A DNA stretch of 64,000 nt from Eledone cirrhosa (lineage: Eukaryota). The DNA lies in assembly GCA_964016885.1 (NCBI GenBank), contig OZ024745.1, forward strand, positions 5,394,001 to 5,458,000. Direction: 5' to 3'. This document shows positions 1,625 through 58,238 of this stretch, piece after piece (the first letter of the stretch is position 1; each line of letters opens with the position of its first letter). The notes under the pieces were generated by a model. The model saw only the letters and a list, made by a program, of their open reading frames with translations, was not told the DNA's origin and made no database searches. The translations under genes were made by a program, and so were the position numbers.

Positions 1625-2110
1625 TAATTATAATGAAATGACAGGAGGCTGGACTTGTGTAAATCCTTGAAAGGTTTATTATACTATGATCATTTCAATG
1701 ACCGGGTTCCGTATGAATTCGGTGATATCATCAGGCATTCGAAATATAATAAGTGAATGTAATAGATAAAATCCATGGGGCTGAAAATCAAGGACCAGAG
1801 GGCGACCGCCATCCAGCATCTTCTACCTTTGCCGGTCGCCCTCGAGTGACGTGGCTAAAACTTACAGTGTGCTACTACAGGTCAGATAAAGGAAAACAGA
1901 AAGGGATGGGAACACAAGTTAGCGTTAATATCATGCCACAAGAAAAGAGAAAGAAAGAAAGAAAGAAGAGAGAAGGAAGAAGAAGAGAAGCCAGGGTTAA
2001 TGTCAGCTATAAGAAGAAAGACAGAAAGAAAGAGGAGGAAAGGTCGGTATTACAGTCAGGCCAGGATTGTCGTGAAGAAATTTTTTATTCTAAGGGACCC
2101 GTATCTTAAC
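1625..2110 (-). mobile_element. Probable solo 3' end (pLTR) of a Penelope-like element
   Basis: Pyrimidine-rich on the minus strand, ends with a hammerhead followed by AATAAA, then a (TA)n tract; same layout as the 3' ends of coding PLEs in this window. No coding sequence. Confidence 0.6.
1681..1738 (-). ncRNA. Type I hammerhead ribozyme
   Basis: Minus strand: AUGC-CUGAUGA-long stem II (ACCG..CGGU)-GAAA-UGAUCA-UA-GUAU; stem I AUGC/GUAU, palindromic stem III AUGAUCAU. Confidence 0.8.
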
Positions 2111-2115
2111 AACTA

Positions 2116-2513
2116 CGGCTGAGTAGCCCAATTTGCATAACGAGTGGGTTAATCGGCCGGGTGCACCGAAAACGATAAACGGAAAAAATGAAGCGAAATT
2201 TCATTTCCCACTCTTAGTACGGCTGTTACTTAAATATAAGTATGTACACGTACATACATATATGTATACACTCGATATGCAAATTGGGCTACTCGGCCGT
2301 TAATATGCATAAGGTGGGTATATACGTTCAACAATCTGGCAGGATGGTATACGTTGCTGGCGATAGCTAATAAGCTTGAGACTAGTACAGAGTTCCTTTG
2401 TCAGTGTTGAACAAACGAGCAACGATGGTTGCTAGACACTGCGGCTTGGTGCGGGATGTTTGTTTACAAACACACCGAACATTATAATAAATGTTCGGTG
2501 AATCCATACTTAC
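2116..2513 (+). mobile_element. Non-coding HHR element family A (retrozyme-like), copy with inverted 5' part
   Basis: 2116-2270 matches 23835-23987 directly; 2271-2513 matches the reverse complement of about 23625-23863; ends in a TA-rich tract. Confidence 0.8.
2352..2392 (+). ncRNA. Hammerhead ribozyme with mutated core (CUGGCGA / GAGA), probably inactive
   Basis: CGTTG-CTGGCGA-T-AGCT-AATA-AGCT-T-GAGA-CTAG-TA-CAGAG; the sister copy at 23742-23782 has the intact CTGACGA / GAAA core. Confidence 0.75.
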
Positions 2514-2902
2514 ATATATATATGTGTGCATACATATTACTGTAGGTCTCTATACATATATGTATGTACGTGTACATATATATATATATATATATATATA
2601 TATATATATATATATATATATATGTATATATATATATATATATATATATGTATATATATATATATATATATGTATATACATATATGTATATATATATATG
2701 TATATATATATATATGTATATATATATATATATATATATATATGTATATATATGTATATATGTATATATATATATATATGTATATATATATATATATATG
2801 TATATATATATGTATATATATATATATATATGTATATATATATATATATATATATATATATATGTATATATATATATGTATATATATATATGTATATATA
2901 TA
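2514..2902. repeat. (TA)n/(TATG)n microsatellite, representative of many such tracts (e.g. 31121-31602, 33919-34507, 42348-42900, 51628-52502)
   Basis: Directly visible dinucleotide tracts; they produce the YIYI ORFs in the track. Confidence 0.97.
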
Positions 2903-55522: not shown

Positions 55523-55637
55523 ATATACATATATATATACATATATATATATACATATATACATATATATATATATATATACATAAATATATATATATAT
55601 ATACATAGATATATGTATATATATATAAATATATATA

Positions 55638-56088
55638 TGAAAGACGTAAAATAAGAACATTTTAAAATTAACTTACTTACTAAAATTTTCACTCCAACTA
55701 ATTAGTTTCTGTAAGGGAATAAATATAGTTACGCAATGCAACTATAGAGAAATCCTTACGTCATCAGGGAGTCTATTCTCAGCTAAGTTCGCAGGCAATG
55801 CGCGGACACTAGGAACGCATATAAAAATAATAATTCAGTGGATGGAAAAAAGCGAGCGGGTACTAGATTCCAGGGCACAAGAAAAAAATTCACTGCCTAC
55901 TTGGTCAGTGGCAAATTCTAAAGAATCAATCACGTGACACTGAGGTTAATCAGTGAGAAGTGGAGTGGTAATAAGACAAGAGCCTAACTACTACCATGAA
56001 CCATAGTAGTAATTTCGGCAAGTTTTGCTCAACAAATAATTTGGTATACATCTGTATACATATGTTGGTAGATATACTAATTCTCTAT
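55638..56088 (-). mobile_element. Non-coding HHR element family C, diverged second locus with short inverted end
   Basis: Collinear with 35468-35876; about 56045-56088 is inverted and ends at the same TACTAATTCTCTATAT as 36353. Confidence 0.8.
55691..55772 (-). ncRNA. Type I hammerhead ribozyme (intact, covarying stem II)
   Basis: Minus strand: ACUCC-CUGAUGA-C-GUAAGG..CCUUAC-A-GAAA-CUAAUUAG-UU-GGAGU. Confidence 0.87.
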
Positions 56089-56448
56089 ATAAATATATAT
56101 ATATATATATACATATATATATATGTATATATATATATATATATATATATATATATATATATATATACATATATATATGTGTATATATATATATATACAT
56201 ATATATATATGTATATATATATATACATATATATACATATATATGTATATATATACATATATATGTATATATATATATATGTATATATATATATATATAT
56301 ATGTATATATATATATATGTATATATATACATATATATATATGTATGTATATATATACATATATATATATGTATATATATACATATATATATATATGTAT
56401 GTATATATATACATATATATATATGTATATATATACATATATATATAT

Positions 56449-58238
56449 ATAAACGTTTGAATATGTGTAATAAAGCCAAAACAATGCAGGTATGGACATA
56501 GAAAAAAGAATGCAATTGTAAAAGATATTGTTGACAATTCATCCTTTACCTTAGATTTATTTAAATGTCCTTAATTTTCGAGATAATATCTCTTCTTCAG
56601 AGGGAAATAAAGGTCTCAAACCAGCGTTCTAAATATCTTGCCAAGCCATGCTGACAGGAAATAGTATAGAGTATCTGTTCTATCTCTAATGTCAAAGAGT
56701 TAAAATTAGGTGGATAAAAAGTAGTCTCCCTTTAAAAGGGGTTTGTTTAGGGTTTTTTATTTTTTATTTTATATACATGCCTGTATAAGTGTGTGGGAGA
56801 ATGCATGAAGGTGTAAGTATGTGAGTGTGTGTGTGTGAGTGTGAGAAGATAAGTCTATTCGTAAATGTGGAGGATAGGTGTTATCTGGTGTAGAACTGGT
56901 TTTGTGTGTGTATGTGTGAGAGAGAATAAGTGGAGGTGTAAGCGTGTGTGTGTGTGGGGTGTGTAAATATGGGGCTAGAAGCCCTATCAGGTTATAAATT
57001 GGGTGTTGAGTTCTAGTCTATTATTGATTGGTGGTTGTGTTTTATCTATAATTAGTGCTTCCTTAATTCTAAGATTGCCGAGGTTTCTTTCCTTAGTTTC
57101 TATCCTAACTGTTATGGTTTTGTCGGTGTTTTTGCATTTAACTAGGTGTTTCTTAAATGAGGAAGCGTTAGTATTGAGGTGTTCTTTTATTCTTATGTGG
57201 AGTGGTCTGGTGGTGCTACCTACGTAGAAGTTGTTGCATTTGTCACACTCTAGTCTGTATACGACGTAAGCCTGGTGGCATAGGTCTGTGTCGTTGATGA
57301 GGCAGTTGGCTAGTCTGCAGCAGTTGTCATGTCTGGTGGAGTGTCTCTTGGCCAGCCGTCCGTGCAGAGAAGGACCCGAGTGGGCCAGTTGGATATCCAG
57401 TCCCTCTCGTCTGATGGCTCTGCGGATGGCTGTTGTTGTTTCTTCACTGAAGTGTGGGAGCTTCAGGAAGCAATTGTTAGTGTCTCGGGTGTGGTGTCCT
57501 CTGTTCTTTCTGGCACGGTTTGTGGTGGACGTCGTGCATCTGTTCAGTCCGAGCACCTCCAGGAAACGTGTGGCGTGTGTGTCTCGGTCTCCAGCGTCGG
57601 TGCATTTGTTCCGGATACGTGCCAGTTCGTTCCTTATGTATCCGAACTTGGCACCGAGTGGGAGGGCCGATCTGAAATGTACGAACAGGTCCCTGCTGGC
57701 GGCTTTTTTATAGAAGCAGGTGTGGATGTTGCCTTCCTCTGTTACCCTGAGTTGGAAGTCCAGTAGGGATAGGGATCCGCGGTCATCGGGGTGTTCCATG
57801 CTGAACTTTATACTGGCGTCCATGCTGGAGAATGTTGTGTATATTTTATCTGCCTCCTCACGGGATGATGTAAGTATGAGTATGTCATCTACATATCGGG
57901 TGAAGAAGGCATGGGAATGGCAGAGTTGAGGGCTCGGCATTCTAGCTGGTGCATGTAGGTGTGGCCAGCAGGCCCGATAGGTTGGATCCCATGGGTAATC
58001 CTGTTGTCTGTCTGTATGTGTGGTGGTGGAAGGTGAAGTACGTGTTGTCTACTGTGAAGGACAAAAGCTGATGTATGTCCGTCGGGTGGAGGCCGTAGCA
58101 GTGGATGTCCTCTGCGACCACGCAGTCCGTCAATAAATCGTCAACGAATTGTCAACAATATCTTTTACAATTGCATTCTTTTTTCTATGTCCATACCTGC
58201 ATTGTTTTGGCTTTATTACACATATTCAAACGTTTATA
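56449..58238 (-). mobile_element. 5'-truncated Penelope-like element with inverted terminal copy of its 3' end
   Basis: GLPMGSNLSG, FTRYVDD, LSLLDF, VVYRLEC..C..FYVGSTTR.L..RIKEH (GIY-YIG); about 58147-58237 is the reverse complement of 56449-56540. Confidence 0.9.
56569..56603 (-). ncRNA. Minimal hammerhead ribozyme in PLE 3' end
   Basis: Minus strand: CCU-CUGAAGA-A-GAGAU-AUU-AUCUC-GAAA-AU-UA-AGG; palindromic stem III AAUU. Confidence 0.78.

Follow-up and report, generated by a model that had tools for sequence, protein, structure and literature searches.

We examined a 64,000-nt stretch of Eledone cirrhosa DNA (GenBank assembly GCA_964016885.1, contig OZ024745.1, positions 5,394,001–5,458,000 of the forward strand; hereafter the window), a TA-microsatellite-rich region of animal DNA crowded with RTE- and CR1-type long interspersed nuclear elements (LINEs) as well as with fragments of Penelope-like elements (PLEs). 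Alongside coding PLEs, the window carries four families of hammerhead-containing units, A, B, C and D, which are dispersed, lack open reading frames (ORFs), are arranged in tandem and are inserted in (TA)n. That PLEs mobilize these units is very probable. The account we favor, held with somewhat better than even confidence as a whole, is that A–D are copied by PLE reverse transcriptase (RT)–endonucleases (ENs), with B, C and D recruiting an enzyme of the Hydra clade through a short bulged hairpin that they share with coding members of that clade. Taken by itself, a Hydra-clade helper for B, C and D is probable, while the case for a circular template is evenly poised. The first-pass annotation of this DNA had proposed retrozyme families mobilized by the resident PLEs; the PLE-type insertions support that proposal, and the helper can be sharpened to the Hydra clade for B, C and D.

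The units are joined head-to-tail and measure 424 nt (A), 534 nt (B), 627 nt (C) and 2,607 nt (D). First-look searches of the genome returned 1623, 2674, 3570 and 2416 candidates, respectively (figures that are not copy numbers), of which the best 38–40 per search were scored. The first-pass annotation had claimed at least three non-coding families; A, B and C stand, and D is a fourth. The copies in the window are:

1627..2116, minus strand: family D, 5′-truncated copy of the 2,607-nt unit, core at 1734
2117..2270, minus strand: family A, inverted arm (unit 1–154)
2269..2588, plus strand: family A, direct arm, two changes in the hammerhead core at 2357
5209..5900, minus strand: family C in a TA tract, a single 627-nt unit with a 65-nt partial copy upstream, core at 5535
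23472..24093, minus strand: family A, canonical core at 23777, ~1.5 units of 424 nt with the long end (unit 96)
35467..35996, minus strand: family B, a single unit of 534 nt with the short end, core at 35603
35997..36361, plus strand: family B, inverted arm carrying a tail of 118 nt, C3U core at 36099
55634..56090, minus strand: family B, diverged copy (84–90% identity), core at 55767, compensatory change in stem II

In A, B and C the longest stop-free stretch of the doubled units spans 76–84 aa, the GC content is 0.32–0.36 (below the 45% bound used for retrozymes) and self-pairing is strong, with circular folds giving z = −9.7, −5.7 and −3.9, respectively, against 30 shuffles. Each unit carries a type I hammerhead motif, whose core and stems are present in A, B and D and which is irregular in C, and none of the four families has protein-coding capacity, the interior of the D unit yielding no PLE protein match in 30 loci. 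Units of A, B and C fall under the ~1 kb bound used for retrozymes, which D exceeds. Tandem units reach 12 + 6 in A, four full units plus partials in B and 24 or more in C; D forms partial tandems. Judged by these genomic features, A, B and C are non-LTR retrozymes, and D would count as a non-autonomous PLE of large size that behaves in the manner of a retrozyme. Long, satellite-like A arrays were also noted at G000:C28:110.02-110.07 Mb and G000:C1:300.72-300.74 Mb (L296-L298, L309, L310 and L316).

A competing origin, raised in the first-pass annotation itself, is that the units are leftover pseudo-long terminal repeats (pLTRs) or 3′ untranslated regions of coding PLEs, multiplied as truncated copies. 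This was examined with the 3′ or hammerhead part only as query and with 30 of 40 scored loci fetched per family, and the sampled loci did not bear it out. Of 30 loci each for A, B and C, none extends upstream into a same-strand ORF, the neighboring ORFs being either set apart by TA tracts or inverted, and no same-strand RT–EN ORF was found between repeats in the sampled loci of A, B, C or D, whereas one is present in the coding PLE family E. At 24 of 30 D loci (chosen by their 5′ region), the 3′ end continues into the start of the unit itself. ORF-less relatives of A, B and C persist at ~70–80% identity, including full-length relatives of B at 74%, and A–D have no extended DNA similarity to the six coding families compared. 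Two D loci (L101 and L144) do continue into PLE ORFs, but the two joins fall at different mid-unit positions and involve different families. A rare or diverged parent could have escaped, since only the best 38–40 candidates were scored per search, and the explanation does hold at 25026, where the site is the pLTR of the 4,320-nt coding element of family E. As an origin for A–D, we consider it largely refuted and highly improbable.

What the units do share with PLEs is the footprint of their insertions. Copies of A, B, C and D are 5′-truncated at scattered points, lie mostly within (TA)n and have fixed 3′ ends. These ends fall at unit 34–44 or 93–96 in A (20 + 20 of 47), at 530–532 or 110–121 in B (25 + 22 of 55), at one place in C (45 of 48) and at 2–11 or 149–151 in D (29 + 23 of 56, a count that excludes 23 internal-repeat artefact ends); coding family E ends at its own end or at 87–89 (25 + 16 of 43). 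In A, B, D and E the two fixed ends often lie on opposite, inverted arms. Inverted arms and tails are common in A, B and D, and C has one tailed, inverted copy among 48 ends. The layout of pLTR, inversion and tail is that of PLE insertions (PMC8557442), and the full architecture (partial tandem, inverted 5′-truncated arm, tail at one end, microsatellite target) is seen in A, B and D, with C showing its partial-tandem and TA-target parts. For an anole PLE copied in vitro, tail length equals the distance between two internal RT starts (PMC11167929).

The two arms of one insertion resemble each other more closely than separate loci do, differing by 1.4% as against 2.7% in A (28 loci, many pairs from one array), 1.6% as against 3.2% in B (25 loci) and 3.1% as against 5.7% in D. 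Since arms within an insertion are about half as different, both are likely to derive from one template or from a close sister. In one A insertion, 12 and 6 units lie on opposite arms, 16 of the 18 being identical, with the long and short ends in TA. Could such tandem copies have grown in place, as satellite DNA, by unequal crossing-over? Local amplification is favored in the Xenopus study (bioRxiv 10.64898/2026.07.22.740005), and a long C array is indeed satellite-like, with 24 full units fetched that carry 0–33 differences and near-identical pairs interspersed. Growth in place leaves unexplained the dispersed copies, the fixed 3′ ends, the TA targets, the 5′ truncation and the identical opposite arms, and as the source of the tandem copies we regard it as very unlikely; satellite-type growth is probably the later fate of some insertions.

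Coding PLEs are the candidate source of the helper enzyme. Intact 740–750-aa open frames of family E are present in the genome, with RWR, DKT, CxCx5C, CxxC and CxH motifs. The motif list of the Hydra clade comprises an RWK-like motif, DKT, a CxCx5C linker, a C-terminal EN and (TA)n targets (PMC8557442), and by its predicted protein and insertion sites E fits the clade on every entry, C-terminal EN and (TA)n targets included. P1, P3 and P6 are classed as Hydra-type by their linker and similarity to E only. Coding PLE features of the window are:

24980..25165, minus strand: solo pLTR from the coding Hydra-clade family E, core at 25082
26492..28770, plus strand: coding PLE P1, Hydra-type linker, 5′-truncated, U3-A8 hammerhead at 28670
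28824..31120, minus strand: coding PLE P2, GIY-YIG, not Hydra-type, minimal hammerhead at 29011
37431..39985, plus strand: coding PLE P3, Hydra-type linker, 5′-truncated, core at 39890
48481..51626, plus strand: coding PLE P4, RT, not Hydra-type, minimal hammerhead at 51506
56452..58145, minus strand: coding PLE P5, GIY-YIG, minimal hammerhead at 56600
58146-58266: inverted arm and tail of P5

Just past the fixed ends of B (two), C (one), D (two) and E (two) lies a bulged hairpin, whose outer stem pairs R-C-U-C with G-A-G-Y, whose 3′ side has a 2-nt bulge and whose top varies (the outer stem of the first B hairpin has one U-A pair). A second C hairpin, at unit 98, matches the sole C copy ending at 89, which has a tail and an inverted arm. 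Examples in the window are:

5801..5826, minus strand: bulged hairpin past the C fixed 3′ end (unit order)
35971-35995 and 35855-35878: hairpins of the B unit 35467..35996 (minus strand)
36245-36269: hairpin of the B inverted arm 35997..36361 (plus strand)

With a fixed descriptor, a hairpin begins no more than 15 nt past 8 of 8 ends of B, C, D and E, relative to a background of 18 matches across 55,532 nt of element sequence, or ~0.5% per 16-nt window. Of the families outside its definition, the Hydra-type P1 and P3 pass, and P2, P4, P5 and both A ends fail. In the sequences compared, the hairpin sorts by helper clade, being common to B, C, D and the Hydra-clade coding elements. It is likely to be the handle by which B, C and D borrow the Hydra-clade enzyme, which would bind it. 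More tentatively, and at rather less than even confidence, we suggest that a ~20-nt hairpin is a portable Hydra-clade signal that sets the RT start, its number and spacing setting the tail, and that it has been captured by unrelated ribozyme circles of 0.5–2.6 kb, which would be copied by a rolling-circle, twin-primed route. A further bulged hairpin was noted by eye at L316:2090-2135 (minus), in an inverted arm adjoining another Hydra-type ORF.

The first-pass annotation had listed 13 hammerheads in the 64-kb window, and a hammerhead-like core with flanking stems is present at or near all 13. Core starts are:

Minus strand: 1734, 5535, 23777, 25082, 29011, 35603, 55767, 56600
Plus strand: 2357, 28670, 36099, 39890, 51506

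Five lie downstream of coding PLE ORFs and six inside ORF-less A, B and C units, as originally described; of the two called solo ends, the one at 25026 is the solo pLTR of coding E, whereas the one at 1681 is a truncated family D copy. Ten of the 13 motifs have the canonical CUGANGA...GAAA core. The core at 28670 is the U3-A8 variant, previously known from Schistosoma PLEs (PMC4209133) and here retained in diverged relatives. The count of 13 needs qualifying at two sites: the 2357 motif has two core changes that are absent from most family A copies, and the 36099 motif has C3U without its A8 partner, a change absent from most family B copies. Because of these core mutations, both hammerheads are probably dead copies. 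A strict type I descriptor found five sites in the window, three with a perfect core (ten shuffled windows gave no perfect-core site); 10 of the 13 escaped it, either because stem II is mismatched at its base or because a stem is short. In B the hammerhead stems covary (seven distinct copies, 98.8% paired, four double changes, 0 of 500 shuffles as high), and core and pairing are retained over ~25% divergence. The A, B and D hammerheads have a palindromic stem III, and the C hammerhead has a perfect 6-bp stem I. A core-like match at 13568 lies inside an RTE ORF and was taken as chance. A short TA-tract insert at L317:1230-1300 (minus), with two CUGAUGA cores and one GAAA, represents a probable further hammerhead family.

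In the mechanism we envisage, a unit would be transcribed as a multimer, the hammerheads would cut it (probably as dimers, given the palindromic stem III of A, B and D) and the monomer would be closed by a host ligase. The enzyme would then bind the hairpin and nick (TA)n, and reverse transcription would start at TA-like bases a few nt 5′ of the hairpin. Two hairpins would provide two starts, one per side of the break, and so back-to-back arms with a tail on one of them; copying through the cut site would yield more than one unit, up to 12 + 6 identical units. Family A would follow the same footprint, and no helper was found for it, a search with the P2 tail returning no match.

The 5′ ends bear on the nature of the template. 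The hammerheads are predicted to cut after unit positions 243 in A, 466 in B, 368 in C and 2549 in D. Breakpoints within 3 nt of the predicted cut number 0 of 27 in A, 0 of 43 in B, 1 of 52 in C, 0 of 45 in D and 1 of 63 in E, with no pile-up; in B, 10 of 43 lie 5–21 nt downstream, a position compatible both with run-off at a cut end and with stalling at stem I. As 5′ ends do not mark the predicted cut, copying would read through the cut site, and such read-through fits a circle and an uncut multimer alike. The same helpers and hairpin might act on an uncut linear multimer, the hammerhead being a passenger or acting elsewhere and no circle being copied. The two core-mutated window copies are in keeping with this. 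So is the anole PLE, for which hammerhead cleavage is dispensable in vitro and unprocessed RNA is the main template (PMC11167929). Conversely, the 18 near-identical units on two opposite arms would require an equally uniform source array, B has kept its core and pairing through long divergence, and circles have been demonstrated for coral, mussel and axolotl retrozymes (PMC7229834). On this evidence we judge a linear multimer unlikely.

The in vitro behavior of the anole PLE weighs against the favored account, and so do several further points. In Xenopus, 8 of 9 dimers tested did not cleave (bioRxiv 10.64898/2026.07.22.740005). Rfam recognizes none of the 13 motifs, with no hammerhead among the best 150 of 199 window matches nor in four focused regions; stems II and III of the C hammerhead are irregular, and covariation in the A hammerhead does not reach significance, 42 of 500 shuffles scoring as high. 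B, C, D and E themselves served to build the hairpin descriptor, and the tested copy of Hydra-type P6 fails it, other P6 copies passing by eye only. Finally, spacer-free junctions join C and D to the non-Hydra P4 and P2, and P3 to LINEs, such that partners may be promiscuous, or the junctions may be a product of deletion.

The families closely resemble metazoan non-LTR retrozymes (PMC7229834; bioRxiv 10.64898/2026.07.22.740005), which are likewise tandem units of low GC content and without coding capacity, each with a type I hammerhead, strong self-pairing and co-occurring PLEs, and whose mobilization by PLEs both of those studies already propose. B and C lie above the 150–450 bp of PMC7229834 and inside the 51–972 bp of bioRxiv 10.64898/2026.07.22.740005; D lies above both. 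In Xenopus the link to PLEs is pLTR similarity (bioRxiv 10.64898/2026.07.22.740005), whereas here it is the insertion footprint and a short shared hairpin. Hydra-clade EN+ PLEs (PMC8557442) likewise target (TA)n and come with partial tandems, canonical hammerheads, inverted arms and tails; in E, B and D the tails measure 89–150 nt, as against the 30–40 bp described there. Neither a hairpin at the start site nor any Hydra parasite is mentioned in the available text of PMC8557442, whose main text contains the word “hairpin” 0 times. In the Anolis Poseidon element PAc (PMC11167929), two internal RT starts similarly explain the tail and an RNA region near the starts is needed; in our families, in contrast, the hairpin lies just past each start and is common to unrelated non-coding families. 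Chlamys MRC1-type elements (PMC8557442), non-coding PLE derivatives with pLTRs and head-to-tail copies, are a precedent for D, although their 3′ ends resemble autonomous families and D is without such similarity to the six coding families compared.

In the published literature we found no report of this hairpin or of cephalopod retrozymes, points on which supplements and Repbase entries may bear. The main text of PMC7229834, which describes mussel retrozymes, contains “octopus” and “cephalopod” 0 times, and the survey of 35 genomes in bioRxiv 10.64898/2026.07.22.740005 covers, in its available text, no mollusc. The element class is already known, and retrozymes in one more animal would by themselves be ordinary; what this analysis adds is a specific helper clade together with a short candidate RNA signal. 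Two questions stand open, the identity of the enzyme that moves animal retrozymes and the way in which PLEs produce tails and mirror arms, and the retrozyme–PLE link published so far consists of co-occurrence and pLTR similarity. A named helper clade with intact ORFs, natural substrates and a candidate signal makes both questions testable in one in vitro assay, and a portable signal would, if it truly fixes an internal RT start, interest builders of retroelement tools.

Other features of the window and of related loci concern element junctions and coding PLEs. Spacer-free junctions were considered as proof of partnership and rejected, as of the nine that involve A–D, seven are with coding PLEs of several clades, one is D–A and one is with a LINE. 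The D–A fusion of arms, at 2116/2117, has no spacer and a few bases of microhomology, and could reflect a template switch or a deletion. At 53058-55503, CR1-type, P3 and RTE pieces are joined without spacers, P3 and RTE head to head; apparent RTE3–RTE1 junctions were library artefacts and were dropped.

P2 (29217-31120) has a long insert within the RT plus a C-terminal GIY-YIG domain. The 3′ end of P1 (28710-28770) occurs as very many back-to-back 50–60-nt mini-insertions (for example L067, L078, L155 and L197), whose 5′ breaks cluster where the 3′ arm of stem II lies in the U3-A8 hammerhead; RT may stall at this point. In a chimeric coding PLE at L156:4622-7245, the P4 ORF is fused with the end of the P5 ORF and the P5 3′ region; L071 and L156 represent a single locus of this chimera, and L072 is a second place. 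Tandem arrays with periods of ~30, 41, 46 and 98 nt occupy window positions 58268-64000, 17160-19362, 14416-15245 and 269-1278, the first of these beginning directly after the P5 tail.

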